From assembly GCA_031431255.1 (NCBI GenBank), contig JANPDB010000823.1, positions 1 to 27,479 of the forward strand: a DNA stretch of 27,479 nucleotides, written 5' to 3'. The notes under the pieces are model-generated. The model was not told where the DNA came from, did not search any database, and saw only the letters and a list, made by a program, of their open reading frames with translations. The translations under genes and the position numbers were made by a program. Shown here piece by piece: positions 9,042 to 25,233 of the stretch; the stretch's first letter is position 1, and every line of letters begins with the position of its first letter. Source of the stretch: Acidimicrobiia bacterium. Lineage in GTDB: Bacteria > Actinomycetota > Acidimicrobiia > Acidimicrobiales > JANYDT01.

Positions 9042-10403
9042 TCAGCCCAGGGGCAGTCGAACGACGAAACGTGCGCCTTCGGTACTCGGTTCGATTCGGA
9101 CCGTCCCGGAGTGCGAGTCAACGATTTCGCGCACGATCGACAATCCCAGTCCTGACCCGCCAGAATGCCGGCTTCTGGAATCGTCGAGCCGTGCGAAGCG
9201 GTCAAAGACGCGTTCACGGTCGGCGGGTTCGATGCCTGGGCCGTCATCTTGGACTGCAAACATCGCGACTCCTTCCTCTTTCCGAAGTTCCACCAGCACC
9301 CGAGATGTTGCATAGCGCGACGCGTTCTCGAGGAGGTTGCGGGCGACACGGGCGAGTTGATCAGCGTCTCCCCTCACCTCGACAGGAGCGACGGCGTTCA
9401 GGTCGATCCGCACATTCGACCGTGGCTGCAGTCTCCGGGCTTCGGATCGCACGATGTCGTCGAGGTCTACGGCGGCGTACTGCGTCAGCTTCACACCGCT
9501 ATCGGATTTCGCGAGGAACAACAGATCAGAGATCAACCTCGTCATCCGACGGTTGTCGTCCACCAAAGAGACTGCGACTCCTTCCCACTGGACAGATGTT
9601 GGGTGCGCGATCGCCACCTCCAAATCGGCCAGGCTGGCCGCCAATGGGCTCTGAAGCTCGTGCGACGCATCTGCGACGAACCGGCGTTGACGTTCCGATG
9701 AATCCTGGAGACGGCCGAGCATGAGGTTCATACTTCGTGCTAGCCGTCCGATCTCGTCGTCGACAGGTGGTTCGGGGATCCGACGGGAAAGGTCTCCGCC
9801 TCCGATCTCTGACACTTTTCGTTGTAGAACGTCGACCGGGCGCAGCGCCGCCCCGACGAAGAACCAACTCACTGCCGCCACGATCAAGAGAAGGAGCGGG
9901 AACGAGATCTCTAAGATCTTCTTGACCGATGAGACGTTCTCGTTCACCCCGTCCAAGCTGAGAGCTACATATACCCCAATCGGCCCGGTTGGCGTCTGGG
10001 CACCGAAGGCCACAAGGTGAAACGGGTCGTCCTTCTGATCCCCGGTAATGGGCAGATCCGTCCGTGATTCCGACAGGAAATCGCCCAGGACCGGCCGTAG
10101 TGTTGAAATCCGCGAGCCGGGGATGACTTGCGCGCTGGCGGCGACGCTTTCACCTTTGCCGTTCACTACTTGGATCACGGCTCCCTTTTCGCCCGAGTCC
10201 GGAAGAGCCAGGGGCAGCTCGGTCTTCTGCGTAAGCAGTGCGACTTCCTCCGCCCGTGTTCTTGCCGAGTTGGAGACGTTGTTCTGCAGGGCCCGATGCA
10301 TGAGCGCCAAGAACAGAAGAGCAGTCACCAAGAGCGCCACTGCGACGACAATCGTGGCTGCCGATGCCATCTTCATTCGGATCGTCGCTGGCTTCATCCT
10401 CAC
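9042..10403 (-). CDS. Membrane sensor histidine kinase (2 TM, HAMP, HisKA, HATPase_c; 453 aa)
   Basis: ALRPV/DDEIGRLA HAMP motifs, H-box ADASHELQSPL, N-box NLLENA, G1 VQDDGPGI, F-box VFDRF, G2 GSGLGLSIV. Confidence 0.95.
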   Translation of the reverse strand: MRMKPATIRMKMASAATIVVAVALLVTALLFLALMHRALQNNVSNSARTRAEEVALLTQKTELPLALPDSGEKGAVIQVVNGKGESVAASAQVIPGSRISTLRPVLGDFLSESRTDLPITGDQKDDPFHLVAFGAQTPTGPIGVYVALSLDGVNENVSSVKKILEISFPLLLLIVAAVSWFFVGAALRPVDVLQRKVSEIGGGDLSRRIPEPPVDDEIGRLARSMNLMLGRLQDSSERQRRFVADASHELQSPLAASLADLEVAIAHPTSVQWEGVAVSLVDDNRRMTRLISDLLFLAKSDSGVKLTQYAAVDLDDIVRSEARRLQPRSNVRIDLNAVAPVEVRGDADQLARVARNLLENASRYATSRVLVELRKEEGVAMFAVQDDGPGIEPADRERVFDRFARLDDSRSRHSGGSGLGLSIVREIVDSHSGTVRIEPSTEGARFVVRLPLG

Positions 10404-10409
10404 TGGTGG

Positions 10410-11087
10410 TCACCCGCCATCGGGGTCGAGGCGGTAGCCAACGAGACGCAGTGTCTGGATGCTCGAGCGCGAAAACGGAATGTCAATCTTCTTGCGAAGG
10501 TACCCAACGTAGACCTCGACGATGTTCAGGTCCATGTCGTACGAGTCGGCCCAAACATGCTCCAGAATTTCCGTCTTCGAAAGCACATCGCCGGGGTGCA
10601 TCATGAAGAACTCCAGTAGAGCAAACTGGCGCGGCGTGAGTTCTACCTCAACATCGCCCCTCCAACAGCGGTGCCGGGCCGGATCGAGGCGAAGATCTGC
10701 GACACTCAGGATTGTTGGGCGCACTCGGCTGGTGCGCCGGATCAATGCGCGGAGATGAGCAACAAGAACGACATACGAGAACGGTTTCGTGAGAAAGTCA
10801 TCAGCCCCGGTATCCAGTGCTTCGGCGTGGTCGTGTTCACCGTGCTTCGCCGTAAGCATCAATATTGGCGTCCAGATTCCCGCTTCACGCAGGTCAGCAC
10901 ACACCTGGTAGCCATTGCGTTTCGGCAACATGATGTCGAGGATGATTGCGTCGTACTCGTTCTCCTCCGCGAGTCGCAGACCTTCTTCGCCATCGGAGGC
11001 GGTGTCGACCACGAAGCCCTCACGCACCAGGCCGCGTTTCATCGCAGCGGCAAGGCGCTCCTCGTCATCGACCAGCAAGAGCCGCAT
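10410..11087 (-). CDS. OmpR/PhoB-family response regulator (225 aa)
   Basis: MRLLLVDDE, LDIMLP phospho-acceptor, LTKPF, and winged-helix C-terminus (NIVEVYVGYLRKKID, TLRLVGY). It lies 6 nt upstream of the kinase. Confidence 0.96.
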   Translation of the reverse strand: MRLLLVDDEERLAAAMKRGLVREGFVVDTASDGEEGLRLAEENEYDAIILDIMLPKRNGYQVCADLREAGIWTPILMLTAKHGEHDHAEALDTGADDFLTKPFSYVVLVAHLRALIRRTSRVRPTILSVADLRLDPARHRCWRGDVEVELTPRQFALLEFFMMHPGDVLSKTEILEHVWADSYDMDLNIVEVYVGYLRKKIDIPFSRSSIQTLRLVGYRLDPDGG

Positions 11088-11191: not shown

Positions 11192-12160
11192 TCACGCTCG
11201 TTGCACCGACGGATCGGCCGTCGAATACACGAGCGCCCGCTTCTCGAGCTCAAGTGCCCCCTTCGACGCCAAATCAAGCTTCTCAGGCGAGAGTTTCTCG
11301 GTGCGCACCATCAGGAGAGTTTCCTTCGACTCATCGGTCCCGTCCCATCCGACGCGAACCACCCCGACGCCCGGCGCGTAATACTTCAGCTGTATCGCGC
11401 TTGTCTCCTCTTCGTTGTATTCCTCCGTAAGGAGCACCCCTTTGTAGGTGCCGGTCGGAACGGTCGTCTCCTCGGTCATTGACCGCACGCGCGCCCGGTC
11501 GTTCCAGAAATACGGTGCTGGAGCGAAGCCTTCCGACCAGTCCGGCGCATTGGTCTTGGGATCGGCCTTCATCATGATTCCCGCCTTGGCATCTGCTGGA
11601 TGGCCGACGAACCACGTGCGACCCGCAGTGTATTCGCCCCCGTCCCACAACTCGCTGTACTGGCCCAAATGCCAGACATTACCCATCTTGTCCTGGGCAA
11701 AGAAGGTCAGTTCATCCTCTTCCAGGTCCCCCTCAGTGAAATCGCTTTCCCAGATGACGACGGTATTGACCCCATTGATCACCTTCGTCAGGTTCGTGAC
11801 GGTGAACGTGACCCGGTGTCCAAGAGTCTTTCCGTCCTCAAACGTCGAGCCATCATACTCATGTCGAGTGCCCGGGACCAACGGAAAGTATTTGTTGTCA
11901 ATATTGATCGAATTCTCGTCGAAGTTCGCGACCTGAAAGTCCTCTCGAGTGAACTTGCTCGGTACGACAACGGGCCGACTGCTAGCCGGGTTCTTGACCG
12001 CATCATCGGTCGTCTCTGCTGCCACGGTAGCGGCATCTACCGTCGTGTCGGAAGACGAGGACGAGCATCCAGTCCCGAAGAAAGCCAGAGCGACAACACC
12101 ACTCAGCAAAGTCAGAGCCTTCCCTCGATGACGAGCGGGCCGAGATCTGCGAACATTCAT
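11192..12160 (-). CDS. Acidic lipoprotein of unknown function (322 aa)
   Basis: ATG at 12160 with SD AGGAGT; Arg-rich N-region, hydrophobic core, GTG-C32 lipobox. Mature part has YFPLVPG, FFAQDKMGNVW, AGIMM.A.P, TVPTG and KYYAPGVG, which I recall from a widespread uncharacterised beta-rich secreted family. The ORF-track extension to 12754 overlaps the RND gene and is discarded. Confidence 0.85.
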   Translation of the reverse strand: MNVRRSRPARHRGKALTLLSGVVALAFFGTGCSSSSSDTTVDAATVAAETTDDAVKNPASSRPVVVPSKFTREDFQVANFDENSINIDNKYFPLVPGTRHEYDGSTFEDGKTLGHRVTFTVTNLTKVINGVNTVVIWESDFTEGDLEEDELTFFAQDKMGNVWHLGQYSELWDGGEYTAGRTWFVGHPADAKAGIMMKADPKTNAPDWSEGFAPAPYFWNDRARVRSMTEETTVPTGTYKGVLLTEEYNEEETSAIQLKYYAPGVGVVRVGWDGTDESKETLLMVRTEKLSPEKLDLASKGALELEKRALVYSTADPSVQRA

Positions 12161-12264: not shown

Positions 12265-15200
12265 TCACGACGGGACCACGGCGATACGGGCCAGTCTCGC
12301 TCGCTCGGCCTTGGACTTGCCAAGGTGTAGGTACATCGGTGGAACGACGAAGAGATTCAAAAGCGTCGAGGTGAAGAGGCCACCGAGAATGACCGATGCC
12401 ATCGGAAACTCGATTTCTTGACCGGAGATGTTGCCTCGCACCAGCAGCGGCACCAGCGCGAGCCCGGTTGCGAGCATCGTCATGAGGATCGGTGCCAGGC
12501 GCTCGGTGGCACCTTTCAGGACGAGATCGGGACCAAACGGAACCCGCTCCTCCTTCTCCAGATGCTGGAAGTGCGTGATTTCCATGATGCCGTTTCTCGC
12601 GGTCAAACCGACGACGGTGAAGAAGCCTACGAACGACCCGATCGAGAGGACGCCGCCGCTCAGGTAGGCGCCCAGTACCCCACCGACGAGAGAAATGGGA
12701 AGCGTGATGAGGTGTAGGGCGACGTCGCGCCAATTTCGGAACACGGCGAGGCATAGCGCGACGATTCCTGCGAATGCGAGTGCAGCAAAGGCGAGAAGCC
12801 GCGTCTGGGCCGCTTGCCGTTCCCGGTACTCACCAAGAACCTGTGCAGTGTGTTCGAGCGGCAGTTTGATTTGGGCAACCTTCGCTTCCAGGTCGCGCGC
12901 GACCGCGCCGAGATCACGTCCATCGACTTCGGCGGAAATGTCAAGACGACGGAACCCTCCTTCGTGGCTGATGGCGTTGGGCGTGGGACGAATGCTCACC
13001 TTGGCGACGTCACCGAGTCGGACCTTCGCTCCGTTCGGGCCATTGACGAGTATTTCGCTGACGTCGTGGATGCTGTTGCGAGCTTCGGGCACGCTCCATA
13101 CCTCGACGTCGTAGGTCTTCCCATCACGGAATACGTCGCCCACCTCTTCGCTCGCCATGATGGTGGCGGCAGCACGCCTCACGTCTCCTGGCTTGACCCC
13201 CGCCTGCTTCGCCTTCAGGAGATCAACATCCACCTCAATCTGCGGCACCAGCAACTGCAACTCGACGTGCTCGTTCTTGACGCCCTCGATCTCGCCGAAG
13301 GCATCTTTGACTTCTTCGGCCTTCGTTCGCAGAACATCGAGATCCGGCCCGATCAGGCGCACGACGAGAGGGTCGCTCTGTCCGGTGATGGTCTCGCTTA
13401 TGCGTTCGGCGAGATAGGTCTCGACGTTGGTGAACATACCCGGATAGCTCGCCACCACTTCTTCGATCTTGGCGAGGGTCTTGTCGTAGTCGACCTTCGG
13501 GTCGATGCTGATCCAGTTCTCGCCGAAGTCAACGCCGGCGATTTCCTCGCCAAGGAACGCCTGCCCGATGTGAGAGCCAAAGTTACGGACTCCCGGAATG
13601 GCCCGAAGTTCGTTGCTGCCTTTGATCACGATCCGTCGTTCCTCGGTGATCGAGGTGCCAGGTTTCGAGATCCAGTGCATCAAGAAGTCCTTCTCCTTGA
13701 AGGTCGGGAACAACGATTGGCCAAGGGTAGGAACCAGGGCGATGCCGCCGATGGCCACCGCTGTCACGGCCGCGTAGATCGGGATCGGGCGCGAAAGGAG
13801 TGGGGTGAGCAGACGTCGGTAGCCGCGACGCAAGAAGACGGCTAGCGGAGATTCGTGATGGTCCCACATCGGAGACGCGGTGCCGCTTCGGGAATAGAGG
13901 ATCATGCTCAACGCCGGGGTGCTGATGAGCGCAACCAGCAGCGACACGGTGACGGCCAGCGCGTACGTGATTGCCAGAGGACGGAAGAACGACCCCGTCA
14001 GGCTCTTCAGGAAGAAGATTGGAACGAGCGACATGATCTCGATGAATGACGCGTAGACCACCGCGCCACGTACCTCGACCGAAGCGGCCAGAATGACCGC
14101 AGCCGTCGATCTAGGGCTGCCGTTGGCATTGTTCTCACGTAGGCGACGCACGATATTCTCGACGTCAACGATTGCGTCATCGACGATGGCGCCGAGCGCA
14201 ATGACCAAGCCCGCCAATACCATCGTGTTGATCGTGGCGCCCCGGGCGTAGAGCACCAGCCCGGCGGCGGTCAACGACAACGGCATTGTGATGACGCTTA
14301 TCAACGCCGAGCGCCAATCGTAGAGAAACAATCCGAGCACGATCAGAACGAGCAGCGCGCCGAGAATCAATGACGAAGTGAGGTGATTGATCGCTTCATC
14401 GACGAAACTCGCCGGACGGAAAATCGTCGTGTCAATGTCGATTCCCGGAAGTCCGGGAGCCATCTCAGCCAGCGCCTTCTCGGCCCCTTCCGTCACCTCC
14501 AGAGTGTTGCCCCAGGGGAACTTCTCAACGACAAGCATCAACCCGGTTCCGCCGTTGATAACTGCGTCTCCGGCGAGAGGCGGCGAACCAGTGACGACTT
14601 TGGCGACGTCGCCGATCCGCAGGATCTTGTCGCCGCGTTGGACGAGCGCGACTTGCGCGAGATCCTCCGGCGTAACGATTGACAACTTGTGGCGCACACC
14701 CAGCCGCTGATTCGGCGTATCGATGAACCCACCTGTGCCGATGAAACCGCCACCGGCATACTTGAGAATTCCCGCATCGAGAGCTTCAGCGGTGGCTTCC
14801 ATCACCTGGTCGAGTGACACGTTCTCGCTGGTCAGCTTGTCCGGTTCCACCTGCACCTGGTACGCCTTGATTCGTTCACCCCAGATGGCGACGTTTGCCA
14901 CTCCGGGTACTCGGAGCAACCTGGCCCGGATCTTCCAATAGGCCGTCATCGACATGTCTTCAAGGGAAATAGTTTTCGAAGACAGTCCGATCTTCATCAC
15001 CCGACTGGTTGCCGAGAGCGGCTGCATCATCACTGGGGGAGCGGCCCAGGTCGGTAGAATGTTTTGTATCGTTGCGAGCTTCTCCTGAACGAGTTGTCGG
15101 GCGTTGAGCTGATCGGTTCCTAGCTTGAAGGTCAGCTCCACGTATGACAACTGGGAAGCACTCTTGGACCTCATGATTTGAAGACCCGGAACGCCGCTGA

Positions 15201-15417
15201 GCGCCTGCTCCATCGGGATCGTTACGAGTGCTTCAACCTCGGAAGCGGCAAGCCCCAGACAGGCGGTTTGGATCTGTACGCGTGGCGGTGCAAATTCCGG
15301 AAAGACATCGACCGGCATCTTCTGCAGTGCGTTGAAACCAAACAGCATCATTCCAGCGGAGAAGGCAACTACAAGGTATCGAAATCGCAGACTATTCTTG
15401 ATTATCCATCGCAACAT
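12265..15417 (-). CDS. Heavy-metal efflux RND transporter, CzcA/CusA family, intact proton-relay motifs (1050 aa; RND-A)
   Basis: PVDVFPEFAPPRVQIQT N-terminal motif of HME/NrsA-like RNDs; TM4 GAIVDDAIVDVENI (D413, D414, D418, E420); TM10 TARNGIM; TM11 ERLAPILMT; TM12 GGLFTSTLLNLFVVP. Confidence 0.93.
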   Translation of the reverse strand: MLRWIIKNSLRFRYLVVAFSAGMMLFGFNALQKMPVDVFPEFAPPRVQIQTACLGLAASEVEALVTIPMEQALSGVPGLQIMRSKSASQLSYVELTFKLGTDQLNARQLVQEKLATIQNILPTWAAPPVMMQPLSATSRVMKIGLSSKTISLEDMSMTAYWKIRARLLRVPGVANVAIWGERIKAYQVQVEPDKLTSENVSLDQVMEATAEALDAGILKYAGGGFIGTGGFIDTPNQRLGVRHKLSIVTPEDLAQVALVQRGDKILRIGDVAKVVTGSPPLAGDAVINGGTGLMLVVEKFPWGNTLEVTEGAEKALAEMAPGLPGIDIDTTIFRPASFVDEAINHLTSSLILGALLVLIVLGLFLYDWRSALISVITMPLSLTAAGLVLYARGATINTMVLAGLVIALGAIVDDAIVDVENIVRRLRENNANGSPRSTAAVILAASVEVRGAVVYASFIEIMSLVPIFFLKSLTGSFFRPLAITYALAVTVSLLVALISTPALSMILYSRSGTASPMWDHHESPLAVFLRRGYRRLLTPLLSRPIPIYAAVTAVAIGGIALVPTLGQSLFPTFKEKDFLMHWISKPGTSITEERRIVIKGSNELRAIPGVRNFGSHIGQAFLGEEIAGVDFGENWISIDPKVDYDKTLAKIEEVVASYPGMFTNVETYLAERISETITGQSDPLVVRLIGPDLDVLRTKAEEVKDAFGEIEGVKNEHVELQLLVPQIEVDVDLLKAKQAGVKPGDVRRAAATIMASEEVGDVFRDGKTYDVEVWSVPEARNSIHDVSEILVNGPNGAKVRLGDVAKVSIRPTPNAISHEGGFRRLDISAEVDGRDLGAVARDLEAKVAQIKLPLEHTAQVLGEYRERQAAQTRLLAFAALAFAGIVALCLAVFRNWRDVALHLITLPISLVGGVLGAYLSGGVLSIGSFVGFFTVVGLTARNGIMEITHFQHLEKEERVPFGPDLVLKGATERLAPILMTMLATGLALVPLLVRGNISGQEIEFPMASVILGGLFTSTLLNLFVVPPMYLHLGKSKAERARLARIAVVPS

Positions 15418-15435: not shown

Positions 15436-15900
15436 CTATTCGTCGCCGACGCCGATTTCGGCGCCGTAGAGCTGAGTTGCGCCGAGTGTCACGACCTTCG
15501 TACCTTCATCCGGACCTTCAGTGAGCGTTGCTACGTCGCCGACGATCTTCTCGACCGTGATCGACTTTCGCTCGAAGGAAAGACCTTTGACGTTCACGTA
15601 CGCCCATGTCTTGCCATCGGGGTCATAGAGCACAGCACCGTACGGAATCTCCAGGCCGGAGGGCCCCATCCTCGCTTCCTCCGTCTTCAGATCAATCCGG
15701 TCCGCGGCCTCCTTGGTCAGGGTCACACGCTGGAGTTGCGAACCTTGAATGTCTTCGACCTCGGCTGCACCATTTGTCGCTTCATCCTCACCCGCAGCGC
15801 TGCGGCAGCCCGATAGCGAGAGCAACCCGACTATCAGGAGACGTTGGAATAGCTTGTTTCGACGGATGAACTTCCCCGTTGTTTTCCGCGTCGTTTCCAT
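15436..15900 (-). CDS. Small lipoprotein resembling only the membrane-proximal domain of a CzcB/CusB-type adaptor (154 aa)
   Basis: ATG at 15900 with SD AAGGA; LSG-C32 lipobox. LQRVTLTKEAADRIDLKT resembles the adaptor N-terminal segment and is joined directly to IPYGAVLYDPDGKTWAYV..SFERKSITV..GDVATLTEGPDEGTKVVTLGATQL, which resembles the adaptor C-terminal segment. Confidence 0.75.
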   Translation of the reverse strand: METTRKTTGKFIRRNKLFQRLLIVGLLSLSGCRSAAGEDEATNGAAEVEDIQGSQLQRVTLTKEAADRIDLKTEEARMGPSGLEIPYGAVLYDPDGKTWAYVNVKGLSFERKSITVEKIVGDVATLTEGPDEGTKVVTLGATQLYGAEIGVGDE

Positions 15901-16025
15901 GATCGTCCGTTCCTTCGCTATCGTCGCTGTCTGCACGGGTAGTGGTTCTGTTCGCTTTGCACTCTCATGTCCTGATCGAGCCAGCAGTTTCGGGTCCGCT
16001 GACGCGGTTCCCCCGTCGGTCCATT

Positions 16026-19000
16026 TCACGAACGGACCAGATCGGGTCGAGTCGTTTCGGACGCGTTGATCAACTCGTCGATGTCCCAGGCAGGCAGGAT
16101 CTCCTTCGGTCCGAAATGTACGTACAACGGGGGTAGGACGAACAGCTGCGTCATCACGGTCGTAACCAGACCACCAAGGATTGCGACGACCATCGGGAAG
16201 AGCAGTTCTTGGCCGGCAATGTTGTTGAAGATAAGAACCGCAGCAAACGCGAGGGCGGTCAGAATACTTGCGTTCACTATCGGACCGACTCGCGATCGAG
16301 CCCCGAGAAGCATCAACTCTTCGTCGAGGGGGCGGCCGTCGTTGCGGAGAGCGAGGTATCCCTCGACGGTTCGCAGAGTGAACCGCGTGGCCAAGGCAAA
16401 CACCGCGGCCAACGCCGAGACGGTAGCGATGGACATGGGCTCTCCGAAGACGCGTGCAGCCACGGGAGCGCCGGTGACCGACACGATGATTGCGAGAAGC
16501 GTTATGGCGCCGAGACGCCAGCTTCGGAATGCGGCCTGCAGTACGAGGAAAACGCCGAGAATTGCCGCGATGGCAAAGGCCATCACCCGTCGTTGCGACG
16601 ATTGCTCGTCGTTGTAGTCCGATAGCACGGTCGTATGAAACTCCGGGGGCATGGCGATCCGTGCGAGGGCTTTTCGAAGATCCGCGGTGACCTCTCCCAC
16701 GTTTCGACTCTTCACATTCGCCGTCACGTCGATGTAGCGAGAGATGTCGTCATGCTCGATAATCGGCGGAGTTGATCTCACCGTGACGTTGGCGACGTCG
16801 CCGAGCCTGATTACTTTGCCGGCCGGAGTGTTGATCAACAGGTCCTGGACGCTCGAGACGCTCGTCCGGATCTCAGGGCGTCCCCAGACGGTGACTTCGA
16901 AGATCTTCTGATCCTGGAAGAGGTTTCCAACCCGAAGGCCCGAGAGGAGGGTTTCCGATGCCCGTCGGACGTCGCCGGGTTTGATGGCGAGTGCTTGAGC
17001 CTTCAGCAGGTCCACGTCAACTTGAATCGTGGGTTCGGCCAGTTGGGACGATATGCGTGCCTGGGAAACGCCCTTTATCCCGGACAGTGAACCCTTGATC
17101 TCGTCAGCCTTCTTGCGAAGCAGGCCGAAGTCCTGTCCATAGAGCCGAACGGAGACCTCGTCCCTACTGCGTCCGAGCGACTTACGAAGCCGTTCCGCAG
17201 AGTATGTGGTCACACGATGGCTCAACCCGGGGTAGCCGCCGACGATTCGACGGATTGCTCCGACCGTCTTCGAGTAGTTGGAAGCTTTCACGCTGATGAA
17301 CATTTCTGCGGCGTCACTCCCGACCGGTCGGTCTCCGCTCACTGCCTGACCAATCTGCGAACCGACCATTCGAACGCCTGGGACCGCTCGCAGCTCTGTG
17401 GTGGCCCGGGCGATGATCCGCGTCATCTCAGGCAGCGACGTGCCGTAGGGAGCCTGCCACCTGATCATCAGGTTGGTGTCTTTGAACTTGGGGAGCAGTA
17501 CCTTGTCCATCGATGGCACGACGGCTATTCCAGCGACAAGAAGAGCCGCTCCCGTTGCGAGTGCCGGAATCGCAGACTTCCCGAAAACCGCAAGCGCTTT
17601 CGTGTAGGTGGGCCCCAACGAGCGGGTCACGAGCGAAGTGTCGTGCTCGCTCCTGTCATTCAGTAGCTTGCGAAGTGCCGGCGTCAAAGTCAGAGCAACG
17701 ACAATCGAAGCAGCCATGGTGACCAAACACGAGATCGCAACAGGCGGAAAGAACTCGTCGCCTGAGACTCCGTTCAGAAAGTAAATGGGCAGCATCGCGA
17801 CCGCGAATATCACGGTCGACCACACCGCCATTTTCGCGGCGCCGTGTGCACCGTTCAGCAGGGCGCGGGACGTGGTCCCAACGGCACTTTCGCTCGGCGA
17901 CGAAGGCGTCGGCGACTCAGCGTCGTCGCTCAATGATTGCTCGATCACCGCACCGACAGCAACCGCCAACCCGGCAATCACGACAACGTTGAAAGCGACG
18001 TCGAGCAGATGCAAGATGGTCGCGGCCGCGCCGAAGGAGAACGCCACCGATACCAGCGCGATCAGCGCCTTCCTCCATCGCAGCAGAAGCAGAACCAAAC
18101 CAGCTGCGACCAGCACTACGCCGACCACAACCGATCGCAGGAGATTTGAATTGGATCGGTTGAGGTAGTCCGTTGGACGGAAGACGGTTGAGTCCATTTT
18201 GAGCCCGACGAGTCCGGGGCGCAACGTCTTCAACACTTCTTCTACGCTGCGCGCGACCTTCGCTGTGTCAGCATTTGGAAGCTTCTCGACCACGATCAGA
18301 AATTGCCCCTCGTCCCCGACGACGGCATCACCAATCAGTGGTTGATGATCCTCGACCACAGTCGCCACATCACCAAGCGTCAACGGAACCCCGACGGTGT
18401 CGTCAATGGCGATCGTGGCCAGATCCTTCGGCTCGATGACCGGAAGATTGTGTTGAATGCCCAGACGCTGGTTGGCCGTGTCGATGAACCCGCCGGTCCC
18501 CGGGGTTGAAGCTTCGAGAAACGTCAGAGGCGATACCCAAAGAGCATTTCCCGTCGAGCTCACCACCTGCTCGATCGAGACCCCCTTCTCACGTAGCTTC
18601 GCGGGGTCAACCAGGACCTGCAACTGACGTTCGCGCTGACCCCAGATCGCCACGTTTGATACTCCGGACACGGCGAGCAATCGGGGTCGGATTGTGAACC
18701 GTGCGAGAACACCGATCTGTATCGGCGTAAGTGTCTTCGACGACAGAGCAATCATCGCGGTACGACTTGTTGACGCCTGAGGCTGGAGCATTTGCGGAGG
18801 GCGCGACACATTCGGCAGGCCTGCCGCTTGGCTGATCCTCTCCTGCACTACCTGGCGTGCTCGGTACAGAGGCGTTCCCTCGTCGAAGATCATTTCGATG
18901 TACGACAGGCCAGGCACGGATTTGGAGTGGATGGAGTCGAGCCATGGGACGCCGTCGAGGAGATCCTGCTCTATGGGAACGGTGACAAGTTGTTCGACCT

Positions 19001-19175
19001 CTTCGGCGGACAGGCCGAGCGCATCGGTCTGAACGACCACGCGGGGAGGATCGAACTCCGGCAACGTCTCTGTCCGGGCGTTCTGCAGCTGAATGACTCC
19101 AAAGACCATCAGCAAAACCGCAAACGCGATTACTGCCCGATTGGCCTTCAGACTCCACGCAATGATCCGTCTCAT
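16026..19175 (-). CDS. CzcA/CusA-family RND paralog with degenerate transport motifs (1049 aa; RND-B)
   Basis: Collinear with RND-A ([43 protein letters not shown]), but TM4 reads [13 protein letters not shown]10 ATRFTL and TM11 SRVGPIVNA. Full-length uninterrupted frame; SD-like GGAAGG upstream. Confidence 0.9.
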
Positions 19176-19833: not shown

Positions 19834-19890
19834 ATGGCAGGTAAACCAGAAACGCAGTGAAAATAGAGTCGTGTGAAACGAGGAATGAAC

Positions 19891-20898
19891 ATGAAACTTG
19901 TCGGTAGCCGCGTACGCACTCGTTACGGAGCCGCGAGTGTGCCTGTGATGTCAGTGCTTCTCGTAGCTGTCGCGTCGCTGACGGCCTGTAGCGGTAAGTC
20001 GGACAACAGCGGAACTCAGTCGGCTGCGGTGGATTCGCCCCTCGGCCTTGACGAGGCCGCGTCCGCGCTGATGCAGACGCGCGTCGAGGAATTGGTCAAG
20101 TCGTGCATGAAGCGTGCCGGGTTCGAGTACGTACCGGTTGACCCGAATGCCACGAAAGCGGCGATCACCGGTACGAGTGGGCTCACCGATGACGAATTCC
20201 GACGCCAGTTCGGCTACGGGATCAGCACTGTTTTCGAAAAGATCGTCGAGATCAGCCAGTCGTCGAAATCCGTGGATCCCAACGTGACGTACCGAAGTGG
20301 TCTAGATCCCGCCGGACAGCAAGCGTTCGACGTTGCGTTGACCGGCGGGAAGGCCGACGTCTCCGTCTCGGGCGCCGTGGAAGCGGCGAAGACCGGTGAC
20401 CTCGGTGGTCTAGGGGGATGTGTCGAAGAAGCCACAACAGCGGTGTTCGGAGGGGCCAACGTCGTGTCGGCATTGGCGAAGATCGAGGAACTCGATTCCC
20501 GGGCTGAGGCCGACGAACGCCTGGTCAAAGCCCGGGCTGATTGGTCGAATTGCATGCGGAAGCAGGGATTTGAGTATTCCGAGCCGAACGCTGTCGACGT
20601 GGGAATCACCGAGAAGCTTGCTGCATTGGTCGGCCCGGCTGCGGCGAAAGCACTGGGAGAGGAGGGGACATTCAGCCCACTGGTCTTCGGAACCAACGCC
20701 CTTCCCGCCTACGACAAGGCTGCCCTGGTGCAGTTGCAGGCAGAGGAGATAGCCACAGCCCAAGCCGACCTTCAGTGCGAGGAGAAGTACGTCGTGGACG
20801 TGGAGGACAAGGTGAAGGCCGAGTACGTGAAGAAGTTCGCACAGGAGAACGCCGTGCTCCTGTCCAAAGCGCAGTCCGAATTGGAGAAACGTAAGTGA
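19891..20898 (+). CDS. Lipoprotein with repeated CMxxxGFEY motif, four Cys in the mature part (335 aa)
   Basis: SD GAGGA at 19880-19884, ATG 19891, LTA-C33 lipobox. CMKRAGFEY (20104-20130) and CMRKQGFEY (20550-20576). Resembles the lipoproteins I recall leading actinobacterial adaptor-ABC operons. Confidence 0.85.
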   Translation: MKLVGSRVRTRYGAASVPVMSVLLVAVASLTACSGKSDNSGTQSAAVDSPLGLDEAASALMQTRVEELVKSCMKRAGFEYVPVDPNATKAAITGTSGLTDDEFRRQFGYGISTVFEKIVEISQSSKSVDPNVTYRSGLDPAGQQAFDVALTGGKADVSVSGAVEAAKTGDLGGLGGCVEEATTAVFGGANVVSALAKIEELDSRAEADERLVKARADWSNCMRKQGFEYSEPNAVDVGITEKLAALVGPAAAKALGEEGTFSPLVFGTNALPAYDKAALVQLQAEEIATAQADLQCEEKYVVDVEDKVKAEYVKKFAQENAVLLSKAQSELEKRK

Positions 20899-23222
20899 AG
20901 CGCTCGGTCGTCGCGGGTGGGATGGCGGTCGTTGTCGGTGTGTCCACGGGAGCCGGGTGGCTCGCAGCATCCCGCGTGAAATCGCCCGCCAAGTTGGCGG
21001 CCGAGGCTGCCCCTCCGGAAGCGTCGTTGATCACGTATCCGGTTGAAAAGCGCGTCCTGAGTTCGGATCTCATCATTCGAGGCACGATGCGTTATAGCGA
21101 TCCGATCGTGGTGGTGCTCGCGCCGTCGGCGCTTCGTCCCCCGCCCGTGCTGGTGAGTCAGGCACCGGTGAAGGGAGCGACGCTGAATGAGGGCGACGTC
21201 GCCATGGTCGTTTCGGGGCGACCCGTGTTTGTCGTGAAGGGAGCTACCCCAGGGTTTCGTGATCTCGGACCCGGTGCGGTCGGCGCCGACGTGCGGCAAC
21301 TGGAGGACTTTCTTCAGCGTCAGGGTTTTGACCCCGGAACCGTGGACGATCACTACGACGGAGCAACTTCCGCCGCAGTGGCGAGGTGGTACAGCAAGGC
21401 CGGCTACCAGGCGTTGGGACCAAACGACCAACAGCGAGCGACACTCCGAGTCGCCGAGTCCGCACTCAGCGTCGCTACCGATCGCCTGCTTCAGGCCAAA
21501 CAGACAGAACTCCTCAACCGCTCGGGAGCGAAGCCTGTCGAAATCATCGACGCGAAGGCGACAGCAGACACATCGAAAGCAACGGCGGCGGCGGCACGAA
21601 TCGCGGCACAGCGAGACGCAGACCGGAGCCAGGCGGAGCTTGCCCTCAAAGAGGCGGATCTCCTCAACAAAGGTGCTGATCTCGCGACCAAACGGGCCGC
21701 CGTCGAAGTGGCGGGAATCGTGCTCGACGACGCTCGTCGGCGCGATGGGCTCGTCGCATCGGGTGTGAACGTGGCGACCGGTGTCACCGTGACACCTCAG
21801 CAACTCGGGTTGTTGCAGGATGGCGTCAACGAGGCCGTCATTGCGGTGGGAGCCGCCGAAGCCGACTTGTCTGCTTCAGAAGCGGTTGCGAACAGCGTAC
21901 GAGTCGCCGGTGAAGCATCGGTGGCGGAGGCGCGCACCAAGCTGAACGGGGCATCCACCTACGTTCTCGATGGACTCACACAGCAAGAACAACTCAACGT
22001 GATTGCCGCAGCCAGAAATGCCCAGGCGGCGCTCGCGCTCGCCGAGGCGGCGGCGGCAAAGGACAACGCCGTCGCGGCGGCGGACGTAGCGACCAAGAGG
22101 GCAGTTCTCGCTACCGCGAAATCGAGGGCAACTCAGGCTCAACAACGGATAGAAAACGCGAACGCCGGGGTGGACCCGGCGACCGGTCTGCCGCTTTCAA
22201 CTGCAGGTGATCGCGCTAACAGTCAATTCGCACTGAAGCAGGCCGAACTCATCCTTCGTCAGGCGGAGATTGCCCTTTCCCCAGCAGAGGCTCTTCTGGC
22301 TGCGGCACAAAATGACGTCGAAACGCTACGACGCGTGAACACACTCACGGCGACGGCGAATCAACAAGCCATTGCAGAGTCCGACATGCGTGTCGAGTCG
22401 GCGCAAGCTCGACTACAGGCCCTGGGTCGTCCCGGTGCCGGTTCTGCGAATCTCAGCGAAGCGGTCAGAGTCGCAACGGCCGAGGTGGCCCGCTTGCAAT
22501 CCGACCTGGAAAGGTACGCGGGCGCTGTCGGGGTTCAGGTACCGGCGAACGAACTCGTCTTCTTTCCCAGCCTTCCACTGCGCATCGACGATACGAAGAT
22601 CAAGCGTGGTGATCCGGCGACGGCCGAAGTCATGACCGTGAGCGGAACCCGACTGGCTGTTGACGCAGCGCTGTTGACAACCGAAGCTACGCTCACGCGA
22701 ATTGGTGCAGCCGCCACCATCGAAGCGCCGGAGTATGCCTTCAGCAGCAAGGGTGCGATCACCTTTCTCGCCGACAAACCAGGCCTGCGTGGAACGGATG
22801 GACAGCACATCGCCATCGAGGTAACTCCCGAAGACAGCTCGACGCAATTGGTCGGCGCATCCGTGCGGATCACGATACCGACCAAGACGACCAATGGGGA
22901 GGCATTGATCGTTCCGGTGAGCGCGTTGTCGGTTCGTGCCACAGGGAGTACTCAACTTCAGATTCAAGATTCGCCCGGAGTCGTCCGGACGGTCGTTGTG
23001 ACCGCCGGGCTGTCAGCCCAAGGCTTCGTGGAGATCGTTCCTGTGAGCGGTTCGGTAAAGGCGGGCGATCGGGTCGTGATCGGCGCTGACGGGCCGACGA
23101 CTACTGACCCACTCGCAAAGGATGCGGCGCCGCTTGCCACTGCACCATTGGGCTCGGTCGAGCCCAACGCGGCAACGTCCGTCGAGGTCGGAGCTACTTC
23201 GACAGTTCCAACGAGCCCATAA
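20895..23222 (+). CDS. Peptidoglycan-binding membrane-fusion/adaptor protein with very long Ala-rich coiled coil (775 aa)
   Basis: N-terminal TM anchor; VEKRVLSSDLIIRG adaptor start; PG_binding_1-like segment FRDLGPGAVGADVRQLEDFLQRQGF..DHYDGAT..AV; helical region about aa 178-540; C-terminal LIVPVSAL..V.AGLSAQGFVEI..GDRVVIG. GTGA-coupled to the lipoprotein gene. Confidence 0.88.
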   Translation: MKRSVVAGGMAVVVGVSTGAGWLAASRVKSPAKLAAEAAPPEASLITYPVEKRVLSSDLIIRGTMRYSDPIVVVLAPSALRPPPVLVSQAPVKGATLNEGDVAMVVSGRPVFVVKGATPGFRDLGPGAVGADVRQLEDFLQRQGFDPGTVDDHYDGATSAAVARWYSKAGYQALGPNDQQRATLRVAESALSVATDRLLQAKQTELLNRSGAKPVEIIDAKATADTSKATAAAARIAAQRDADRSQAELALKEADLLNKGADLATKRAAVEVAGIVLDDARRRDGLVASGVNVATGVTVTPQQLGLLQDGVNEAVIAVGAAEADLSASEAVANSVRVAGEASVAEARTKLNGASTYVLDGLTQQEQLNVIAAARNAQAALALAEAAAAKDNAVAAADVATKRAVLATAKSRATQAQQRIENANAGVDPATGLPLSTAGDRANSQFALKQAELILRQAEIALSPAEALLAAAQNDVETLRRVNTLTATANQQAIAESDMRVESAQARLQALGRPGAGSANLSEAVRVATAEVARLQSDLERYAGAVGVQVPANELVFFPSLPLRIDDTKIKRGDPATAEVMTVSGTRLAVDAALLTTEATLTRIGAAATIEAPEYAFSSKGAITFLADKPGLRGTDGQHIAIEVTPEDSSTQLVGASVRITIPTKTTNGEALIVPVSALSVRATGSTQLQIQDSPGVVRTVVVTAGLSAQGFVEIVPVSGSVKAGDRVVIGADGPTTTDPLAKDAAPLATAPLGSVEPNAATSVEVGATSTVPTSP
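21675..22187 (+). repeat. Intragenic protein-level duplication in the adaptor coiled coil (135-aa period)
   Basis: aa 261-296 (21675-21782) ADLATKRAAV...SGVNVATG and aa 396-431 (22080-22187) ADVATKRAVL...AGVDPATG align without gaps at 15/36 identities. Confidence 0.7.
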
Positions 23223-23230
23223 GAACAGCC

Positions 23231-23977
23231 ATGTCTCGCGAACAGCAGTCCAACGAGACCGACAAAGAGGGAGGCGACCTACCGCAGGGGCCACGCGTCC
23301 TTCTTGAACTCATTCACGTGAGCAAGGTCTTTCCGACCACACCGCCGGTAAACGCACTCTCTGATGTGAACGTCCGGATTCTGCCTGGTGAGTATGTCGC
23401 GATCGAAGGCCAGTCGGGCTCCGGAAAGTCAACACTGCTGAATGTGCTTGGATGCCTCGACCGACACACCAGCGGTACCTACCTCTTCGATGGGATAGAC
23501 ACGTCGGAGCTCACTGACTCTGAGCGTGCCGAGCTACGGGGCAATCGGATCGGGTTCGTTTTCCAGGCTTTTCATCTTCTTGCCCATCGCAGCGTTCTCG
23601 AGAACGTGATGCTTGGTGAGTTGTACCTCGCCAACCCAAGGTCGGAGCGCAAGAAGGAAGCGCTGGTTTGTCTTGACCAGGTTGGGATGAACCACCGGAT
23701 TTCGTTTCTGCCGACGCGACTGTCGGGCGGCGAAAGGCAACGTGTGGCCATCGCCCGTGCTCTCATGGGTGACCCCGGGGTCCTTCTCTGCGACGAGCCG
23801 ACCGGCAATCTCGATACCAAGAACACCGAGATGGTTCTTGATCTTCTCGATGCTCTTGTGGCTCGGGGCATCACGGTGTTGGTCATCACTCATGAGAGTT
23901 CCGTTGCCAAGCGCGCTCAGAGACGACTTCGTATCGTGGACGGCTTCGTGTCGGAGCTCGTCGGTACCGTCTCGTGA
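23231..23977 (+). CDS. ABC ATP-binding protein, LolD/MacB family (248 aa)
   Basis: [44 protein letters not shown] and ITHE; all catalytic motifs intact. Confidence 0.95.
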
Positions 23978-25233
23978 GACTCGCTCGCAGGCCGCGGCAG
24001 ACGAGCGGGAGTGCGCGGCGCGCACACAAACAGACGAAGCTGAAGCTCGTTGACTTGATCATCGAAGCAAGCTCGGGCGTCTTGTCGCGTCCCGGTCGTG
24101 CTGTGCTGACAATTCTCGGAACGGTCCTCGGAATCGGCGCTCTCGTCGCAACGCTTGGCATCTCAAAAACGGCAGGCAATCAGATCGTTGGTCGCTTCGA
24201 CGCTCTGGCGGCAACGGAGATCATTGCCACGCCACGGGCCGTTGGACGGCTCACCGTGAACGCCATTCCATGGAACGCGCAAGATCAGCTCGAGCGACTG
24301 AACGGCGTGGTCGCGGCAGGAACGCTGGCCGACATCACGGTCAAAGGGACGTTGATCCGCGCGGTGCCGGTGAACGATCCGCTCGGGCAGAGCCAGTTTC
24401 AGATGCCTATCAAAGCGGCGTCGCCCGGACTGTTTCGCGCCACCCGGGCACGACTGGGATCGGGACGTTTCTTTGATCAGGGACATTCGGATCGCACGGA
24501 GCGTGTGGTTGTCATCGGGCGTTCGGCGGCCCAAAAACTCAATCTTGCGAGAGTCGATCAGCTACCGGCGATCTTCGTCGGCGACCAGCTGTACACGGTC
24601 ATAGGGATCCTCGACTCCGTTGCCCGGCAACCCGACCTGATTTCCTCGATCATCATTCCGGAAGGAACCGCTCGCAAAGAGTTCCGACTCAGCGGCCCGT
24701 CCCTGGTCGAGGTCGAAACGCAAATCGGCGCGACGAGTCTCATCGCCGAGCAGATCCCGCTCGCCCTATCGCTGAATGATCCCTTGAAGATCAAGGTCGC
24801 GGCGCCCCCCGAACCGAAGCTTGTCAAAGACGGAATCCAGAGCGATCTCAACTCGCTCTTTCTCGTGCTGGGCGCGGTGTCGTTGCTCGTCGGCGCGATC
24901 GGCATCGCCAACGTCACGCTCGTTTCGGTTCTCGAGCGGACCGGGGAGATCGGTCTGCGGCGTGCGTTAGGCGCCGGGCGTCGCCACATTGCGTCGCAGT
25001 TTCTCGCCGAGAGTACCGTCTTGGGTTTGATCGGCGGTGTTCTTGGGGCATCGTTTGGGCTGCTCGTCGTTGTCGGCATCGCGGTGACCCGTCAGTGGAC
25101 CGCCGTTATCGACCCGAAGATCCCACTTCTGGCCCCGCTCCTTGGAGCCGTGGTCGGGCTCGCGGCCGGACTGTACCCGGCTCTGCGAGCCGCACGACTC
25201 GAGCCCGTCGAGGCGCTTCGCTCGGGAACCTGA
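23974..25233 (+). CDS. MacB/FtsX-type ABC permease (up to 419 aa)
   Basis: GRAVLTILGTVLGI first TM, large extracytoplasmic domain (GRFFDQ, VVVIG, IGIL), GAIGIANVTLVSVLERTGEIGLRRALGA, and YPALRAARLEPVEALR C-terminus. The true start may be slightly downstream. Confidence 0.93.
   Translation: MRLARRPRQTSGSARRAHKQTKLKLVDLIIEASSGVLSRPGRAVLTILGTVLGIGALVATLGISKTAGNQIVGRFDALAATEIIATPRAVGRLTVNAIPWNAQDQLERLNGVVAAGTLADITVKGTLIRAVPVNDPLGQSQFQMPIKAASPGLFRATRARLGSGRFFDQGHSDRTERVVVIGRSAAQKLNLARVDQLPAIFVGDQLYTVIGILDSVARQPDLISSIIIPEGTARKEFRLSGPSLVEVETQIGATSLIAEQIPLALSLNDPLKIKVAAPPEPKLVKDGIQSDLNSLFLVLGAVSLLVGAIGIANVTLVSVLERTGEIGLRRALGAGRRHIASQFLAESTVLGLIGGVLGASFGLLVVVGIAVTRQWTAVIDPKIPLLAPLLGAVVGLAAGLYPALRAARLEPVEALRSGT

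Follow-up and report, generated by a model that had tools for sequence, protein, structure and literature searches.

Periplasmic adaptors of resistance–nodulation–division (RND) pumps, or membrane fusion proteins (TC 8.A.1), have two roles, one in forming the duct to TolC and one in acting on the transporter. No clean separation of the two is possible in the model systems, since four domains (membrane-proximal, β-barrel, lipoyl and α-helical hairpin) are joined in one chain and folding and assembly depend on the membrane-proximal (MP) domain. The subject of this analysis is a small lipoprotein gene in a 27,479 nt stretch of DNA from an Acidimicrobiia bacterium (positions 1 to 27,479, forward strand, of contig JANPDB010000823.1, assembly GCA_031431255.1). 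The whole of this stretch is referred to as the window. The gene is located between two paralogous RND permease genes. Its product, as judged from a predicted fold and from weak but consistent sequence signals, is a lipid-anchored RND adaptor homologue which consists of the MP domain alone.

The small lipoprotein resembles the MP domain (‘domain 1’) of CusB (PDB 3ne5, 3h94, 3ow7), ZneB (3lnn) and SilB (5a4g). Compared with these adaptors, a linker of 11 residues replaces the β-barrel, lipoyl and α-hairpin domains, there are no conserved metal ligands, and the protein is a predicted lipoprotein. The genetic setting also differs, as the gene lies between two paralogous RND genes and a CusC/CzcC-type channel gene was not found nearby. 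AcrA and MexA (HAE-1, TIGR01730) contain four domains, of which one is present here; a hexameric funnel or a reach to TolC or OprM would be impossible. The nearest described domain loss is that of BesA from Borrelia burgdorferi (PDB 4kks/4kkt), which naturally has no α-hairpin. BesA, however, keeps its lipoyl and β-barrel domains and works with the channel BesC, whereas the small lipoprotein is without those domains too.

A further likeness is to MdtABC and MuxABC-OpmB, in which two paralogous RND genes are inherited together. The two RND paralogues in the window are probably co-assembled. In MdtABC and MuxABC-OpmB one full-length adaptor (MdtA, MuxA) is encoded before both permeases, together with TolC or OpmB, whereas in the window the adaptor is encoded between the two permeases, has the MP domain only and is not accompanied by a channel gene. 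The MmpS proteins of actinobacterial MmpL transporters (HAE-2) are small extracytoplasmic, membrane-tethered accessory proteins encoded beside an RND transporter. The window likewise holds a small, apparently membrane-tethered accessory protein beside an RND gene of an actinobacterium. Its predicted fold, however, is the adaptor MP β-roll, it has no Pfam MmpS match at E ≤ 0.1, and its partners are AcrB/CusA-like ACR_tran permeases with 12 transmembrane (TM) segments, not MmpL.

The small gene, the parts of its product and the two permease genes are located as follows.

15436–15900, minus strand: coding sequence of the putative MP-domain-only adaptor lipoprotein; 154 codons (15439–15900) without internal stop, stop codon at 15436–15438
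15910–15915, minus strand: Shine–Dalgarno sequence AAGGAA, 10 nt upstream of the ATG at 15900
15805–15900, minus strand: predicted lipoprotein signal peptide, residues 1–32; basic n-region KFIRRNK, hydrophobic core and lipobox LSGC, with the Cys-32 codon at 15805–15807
15670–15765, minus strand: N-terminal segment of the predicted MP domain, residues 46–77; two strands, helix 63–68 and strand 72–75
15649–15681, minus strand: linker EEARMGPSGLE, residues 74–84; site of the lipoyl and β-barrel domains in longer relatives
15445–15648, minus strand: C-terminal segment of the predicted MP domain, residues 85–152; invariant G140 and conserved tail LYGAEIGVG
12265–15417, minus strand: downstream RND permease, 1050 aa (Pfam ACR_tran, E 1.5e-202), 18 nt after the small gene; predicted binding partner
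16026–19175, minus strand: upstream paralogous RND permease, 1049 aa (Pfam ACR_tran, E 1.6e-140), 39% identical to the downstream RND

A first-pass annotation, made from the letters of the window alone, had described the open reading frame. Its frame, lipobox and quoted segments are all accurate, and 122 residues follow Cys-32. The quoted segments correspond to residues 59–73 (VTLTKEAADRIDLKT), 74–84 (EEARMGPSGLE) and 85–144 (IPYGAVLYD...VVTLGATQL). Two start codons had been considered, the ATG at 15900 and a GTG at 16029. The three closest orthologous loci share the ATG and its AAGGAA Shine–Dalgarno sequence without change, and most homologues start at the equivalent Met. The block GGAACGGA(C/T)GATCATGGAAAC is kept in the related loci L003, L004 and L005, with divergent DNA further upstream. 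The GTG was rejected as the start, since the 126 nt upstream of the ATG are not conserved and contain indels, and in locus L001 the frame is open for just 23 codons; ATG 15900 is thus supported. With the GTG as start, 43 residues would also precede the signal peptide.

Lipidation of Cys-32 is predicted from the signal peptide and the lipobox LSG-C32, the Cys of which is at least 90% conserved in an alignment of the close family (31 sequences; a wide-family alignment contained 67 diverse members). In a few family members (L070:7869-8342, P0029) the signal or anchor sequence has no lipobox Cys; instead of being lipidated, these would be secreted or anchored by their signal sequence. An apparent RND::lipoprotein fusion in L070 (a 1,233-aa frame) was traced to read-through out of frame in DNA of high GC content; the actual gene starts at an ATG of its own.

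Against the three closest orthologues, the ratio of non-synonymous to synonymous substitution rates (dN/dS) is 0.075–0.14 for residues 46–154, about 0.3 for residues 1–45 (signal peptide and tether), and 0.14–0.22 for the whole gene. By these comparisons the small lipoprotein is encoded by a real, expressed-type gene under strong purifying selection. A word-indexed search returned 32 close homologues of 139–172 aa. An exhaustive HMMER scan of a library of 1.84 billion protein cluster representatives matched 1,822 of them at E ≤ 0.001 and 1,077 at E ≤ 1e-10, the latter mostly 140–160 aa long. The protein is much shorter than any characterised adaptor and scores far below the family cut-offs, as might be the case for a functionless remnant that decays after a deletion in a full adaptor gene. 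This explanation has practically no probability, as it is contradicted by conservation: by the low dN/dS, by the 1,077 representatives of mostly uniform length, by the conserved start codon, Shine–Dalgarno sequence and lipobox, and by a gene position which is fixed in 82 loci across several phyla.

The AlphaFold2 model, computed from the 31-sequence alignment, is a single domain with a mean predicted local distance difference test score (pLDDT) of 78, exceeding 90 for approximately residues 50–150. Residues 1–41 have low values, as expected of a signal peptide plus tether, and the only helices are 63–68 and 141–149. That the protein represents an adaptor MP domain had been proposed in the first-pass annotation, and the predicted fold does superpose on this domain. 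The leading Foldseek matches are all efflux adaptors (CusB, AcrA, ZneB, MexA, TMexC, BesA, SilB and TriAB), with root mean square deviations of 1.2–2.0 Å across 56–72 residues. The matched ranges span the adaptor chain from one end to the other, as expected if the model is an MP domain, since both ends of the chain contribute to this domain. The N-terminal segment aligns with the N-terminal end of CusB and ZneB. Two features of the adaptor family are present, namely an MP β-roll formed in the model jointly by the N- and C-terminal segments, and the N-terminal lipid anchor signal seen in the sequence. Three others are absent. A nested β-barrel domain has no room, as just the 11 residues of the linker join the two MP segments. 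For a lipoyl domain, no match to Pfam HlyD_D23, HlyD_3 or Biotin_lipoyl was obtained in the small lipoprotein or in the 67 wide-family members. An α-helical hairpin is found neither in the model, with its two short helices, nor would the sequence be long enough for one.

Profile searches point to the same family. NCBIfam TIGR00999 matches the small lipoprotein at profile positions 202–268 of 271 (E 1.4e-4; 21 bits against a cut-off of 319.3) and TIGR01730 at positions 251–313 of 322 (E 1.2e-3; 17.9 bits against 94.9). Both matches are below the curated cut-offs and cover the C-terminal 60–70 profile positions alone. TIGR01730 is matched by 39 of the 67 family members, with a best E of 6.7e-9, and in a comparison with the PDB the family profile matches the MP regions of TriAB, 4l8j and MexA.

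The linker had been taken as the place where the nested domains were lost, and eight longer relatives (209–336 aa) bear out its position. In these proteins the shared N segment ends at residues 73–80 and the C segment, which is 43–57% identical to that of the small lipoprotein, resumes at 83–85, with 70–205 extra residues in between. Since the inserts of the long relatives fall at residues 73–85, the 11-residue linker is exactly the site of the nested domains. The boundaries were taken from pairwise BLAST, as hmmalign cut back the largest relatives and put the insert in the wrong column. Two relatives, P0110 (336 aa) and P0147 (305 aa), share the N-terminal segment, are 49–54% identical over residues 85–152 and carry inserts at the linker. 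The insert of P0110 matches Pfam HlyD_D23 (E 5.9e-12), and the protein aligns to AcrA 175–365, which corresponds to the second lipoyl half, the β-barrel and the MP domain. The genes for both occupy the same slot, with an RND gene after them and another RND gene upstream. The short form may represent either domain loss or the ancestral state. In some longer relatives (P0081, P0134, P0167) the lipoyl/barrel inserts are replaced by an apparent partial tandem duplication of the MP C segment; P0081, for example, matches residues 14–138 of the query and then 85–153.

The association with RND genes is strict. An RND gene is located directly downstream on the same strand in 82 of 82 related loci, so that homologues away from RND genes, which would have spoken against the first-pass annotation, were not found. 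A second RND gene is present upstream in all 78 assessable loci (four of the 82 are too short upstream to judge); it is usually adjacent, and other genes intervene in three. The order of the cassette is fixed: upstream RND paralogue, small lipoprotein, downstream RND paralogue. Both permeases in the window are full-length and have the same orientation as the small gene between them. Upstream and downstream RNDs form two separate clades (downstream clade 38/38 sequences, support 1.0), and the pairing of the paralogues is therefore old. In seven loci (L009, L010, L014, L015, L028, L052, L066) the same RND run contains a second small gene. Several of these are RND–small–RND–small–RND arrays, with the small gene twice beside up to three or four RND genes.

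Small β-rolls are common, and Pfam has no family for the small lipoprotein at E ≤ 0.01 and none common to the 67 members at E ≤ 0.1. One could thus imagine an unrelated small β-protein, independent of pumps, which came to look like an MP domain by convergence. The findings contradict this explanation, which we consider hardly credible.

Among solved pumps, the downstream RND is closest to ZneA (the best match, E 9e-102), CusA and AcrB. Its TM4 has the motif GxxVDDAIxDVEN, which all 38 orthologues share. In the upstream RND of this genome, Glu–Gln replaces the Asp–Asp proton-relay pair of TM4, at which the downstream RND has GAIVDDAIVDVEN. Most upstream RND orthologues (28–32 of 38) keep the Asp pair.

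The first-pass annotation had explained the short form by there being no outer-membrane channel to engage. The part of this claim that concerns the locus stands, as no channel gene was found nearby, but the relation is a tendency and not a rule. The TolC/OEP family (PF02321) gave no match in the genome of the window, a metagenome-assembled genome (MAG) of 989 contigs which is 78% complete. An OEP profile built from 16 proteins gave none in 4,425 open frames of 84 related loci and the window; as this profile recovered four of six TolC-family proteins in a hold-out control, the sensitivity of that negative is moderate. The best 80 loci belong to Actinomycetota (41), Chloroflexota (26), diderm phyla (11) and Patescibacteria (1), with one unclassified. 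The 11 diderm loci are from Gemmatimonadota, Planctomycetota, Verrucomicrobiota, Eisenbacteria, Omnitrophota and one ‘Burkholderiales’ MAG. Four of the five diderm carriers tested have 6–25 OEP matches elsewhere in the genome. At three diderm cassettes, however, the scanned flanking genes include no OEP gene and code instead for ATP-binding cassette exporters of the ABC-2 type. The short form thus goes with duct-independent cassettes and is concentrated in, but not confined to, monoderms. Within the phylum of the window, the small gene is carried by 18 of 200 sampled genomes. The genome of locus L072 (G003, a 4.7-Mb MAG labelled Burkholderiales) has zero OEP/TolC matches, which is odd for Burkholderiales; the contig may have been binned wrongly, or the taxonomic label may be incorrect.

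Taken together, the fold and homology of the protein, the site of the inserts in longer relatives, the linkage to RND genes, the purifying selection and the lack of a channel gene nearby are best explained by a lipid-tethered, MP-only protein which docks on the PC1/PC2 subdomains of the RND porter and supplies the transporter-directed half of adaptor function without the duct. We consider this likely; binding and activation are the inferred parts. After processing by Lgt and Lsp, Cys-32 would tether the protein to the outer face of the cytoplasmic membrane via approximately 12 residues. Its most conserved face (A65, R68, Y92–G96, G140, L144–E148) would then dock on PC1/PC2. The docked MP domain may stabilise or activate the transport cycle, help the two-paralogue pump to assemble, or shape the entrance of the cleft. 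With the duct-forming half missing (hairpin, lipoyl domain and barrel funnel to TolC), the pump would release its cargo at the outer face of a single membrane, possibly to a co-encoded lipoprotein of LolA-superfamily-like type.

A complex prediction supports, but does not show, binding to the porter domain of the downstream RND, the permease that was covered. The input consisted of the periplasmic loops 32–345 and 563–875 of this RND and residues 40–154 of the lipoprotein, with an alignment for each. The prediction scored 0.77, compared with 0.06 for the best of three controls; in calibration 58 of 80 solved complexes and two of 110 mismatched pairs attained that mark. The contacts of the three runs coincide to at least 92%, with a partner pLDDT of at least 84. 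All confident contacts of the RND are on its second loop (583–603, 656–663, 717–725, 778–784, 808–812), that is, on PC1/PC2. On the lipoprotein side they involve residues 61–70, 92–96 and 140–153, which are the most conserved of the family. The invariant residues are A65, R68, P86, Y87, Y92, G96, T98, W99, R111, I119, G129, P130, G133, V137, G140, L144, G146, E148 and G152.

One of these residues has a counterpart in a characterised adaptor. G140, present in every sequence of the close family and conserved to at least 90% in the wide one, corresponds to G323 of P0110 (ungapped alignment, offset 183) and, by the alignment of P0110 with AcrA, to G363 of AcrA. The substitution G363C in AcrA, like G353C in MacA, abolishes the functional but not the physical interaction, and the C-terminal (MP) domains of adaptors are critical for stimulating transporters (PMC4338810).

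Several points weigh against a docked, transporter-directed MP protein as the whole explanation. According to the model for AcrA and MacA in the same paper (PMC4338810), stimulation needs TolC-induced changes relayed through domains which are absent here, and activation by the MP domain alone is therefore not a given. As solved CusBA and AcrAB complexes exist, the score of the complex prediction may reflect likeness to these, and the split periplasmic loops used as input differ from the calibration set. The core contacts of the RND (T588, S589, E592, R595, Y658, P659, G660, P725) are conserved in both paralogues, so their conservation does not tell which paralogue binds. The upstream RND in this genome is without the Asp pair of TM4, which may bear on stoichiometry and on the roles of the paralogues. 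Finally, since the family also occurs in TolC-rich diderms, lack of an outer membrane is not the whole reason for the short form.

The downstream RND gene is followed, on the same strand, by a second lipoprotein gene and a two-component system.

11192–12160, minus strand: 322-aa lipoprotein with lipobox FGTGC, directly after the downstream RND gene; predicted open β-barrel of the YmcC/DUF3108/LolA-superfamily type
10410–11087, minus strand: response regulator of the two-component pair (Pfam Response_reg/Trans_reg_C)
9042–10403, minus strand: histidine kinase of the pair (Pfam HAMP/HisKA/HATPase_c)

The AlphaFold2 model of the 322-aa lipoprotein has a mean pLDDT of 80. Foldseek relates it to 3fzx (YmcC/DUF3108, E 2.4e-6), with weak structural matches to VioE, RseB/MucB and LolA3, and this predicted fold hints at a carrier of hydrophobic ligands. 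Homologues are present in 29 related loci, which makes the protein a frequent fourth member of the cassette.

In a wider and more tentative reading, which we regard as possible but doubtful, the cassettes represent a class of RND exporters that work without a duct, a class which is widespread, mostly in the monoderm Actinomycetota and Chloroflexota, and so far undescribed. As part of the same reading, the class would comprise the two RND paralogues, upstream and downstream, with the MP-only adaptor between them and, often, the LolA-superfamily-like lipoprotein. A single MP domain would suffice for adaptor function on the hetero-oligomeric pump, and the cargo would be neither a metal nor a drug but a hydrophobic component of the envelope.

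The position of the 322-aa open-barrel lipoprotein after the downstream RND, and its homologues in the 29 loci, could also mean that the MP-only lipoprotein is a bridge: its main task would be to couple the exit or entry site of the RND to the LolA-superfamily-like lipoprotein, so that a hydrophobic cargo such as a lipid, glycolipid or lipopeptide is passed on, instead of activating the pump. There is some overlap with the docked MP protein described above. ABC-2 exporters adjoin several loci, and the downstream RND has an AcrB-like Asp–Asp in TM4, not the D-G-A of ZneA, both of which fit a hand-off of this kind. We nevertheless consider it unlikely. The barrel lipoprotein is missing within 8 kb from approximately 50 of 80 loci, whereas the small protein and two RNDs are always present, and its fold matches are weak (TM-scores of 0.3–0.5).

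The two-component pair is likely to regulate the cassette; it recurs in just 11–13 related loci. Apart from the RND genes, no neighbour is universal across the related loci. Adjacent systems of this type are known from many metal-resistance operons. Together with the best structural and profile matches of the small protein (the MP domains of CusB, ZneB and SilB; TIGR00999, CzcB/NccB) and the closeness of the downstream RND to ZneA and CusA, this recalls a metal chaperone or metal-sensing switch, which would deliver an ion to a heavy-metal RND as do the CusB N-terminus, ZneB and SilB. Such a function is improbable. Neither the 31 nor the 67 aligned members show a conserved Met, His or Cys in the mature protein, which is evidence against a CusB-like metal site. 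The RND scores 533 bits against a CusA/CzcA family cut-off of 701, and its TM4 has the form VDDAIxDVEN and not the DFGIIVDGAIV of ZneA. A metal as the pump substrate is not favoured.

Public records label members of the family as ‘hypothetical protein’ or ‘lipoprotein’. According to the Atlas, the newer Pfam models CzcB_C and RND-MFP_C appear to catch some sister clusters. A full-text literature search, with subscription journals outside its coverage, found no description of an MP-only adaptor, and adaptor reviews of 2015 and 2026 do not mention such forms. One of the 2015 reviews states that Gram-positive adaptors, contrary to expectation, retain hairpins (PMC4446572), a remark which missed a large hairpin-less class. 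With the docked, transporter-directed MP protein as the preferred explanation, the family is of interest as a case where the MP domain alone is strongly selected, in more than 1,000 sequence clusters, beside RND pumps and with no channel gene found adjacent. It gives direct experimental access to the effect of an MP domain alone on an RND transporter, which could be to activate the pump, to assemble a trimer from the two paralogues or to gate the PC1/PC2 cleft. As the carriers include cultured actinomycetes (Lentzea, Amycolatopsis, Kibdelosporangium, Micromonospora), genetics is feasible.

On the other side of the cassette, the window contains a divergent transport system.

19873–25233, plus strand: MacB-type system with a 341-aa protein, a 775-aa PG_binding_1 protein, an ABC ATPase and a MacB/FtsX-like permease

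The MacB-type system also lies beside the cassette in L001, and in all occurs in just three to five related loci. ABC-2 exporter genes (ABC_tran plus ABC2_membrane_2) adjoin the cassette at L035:10013-12900, L059:11528-12637 and L084:4531-7888. These are two Gemmatimonadota loci and the locus of the long relative P0110; in both Gemmatimonadota loci, DUF5916 proteins are encoded upstream.

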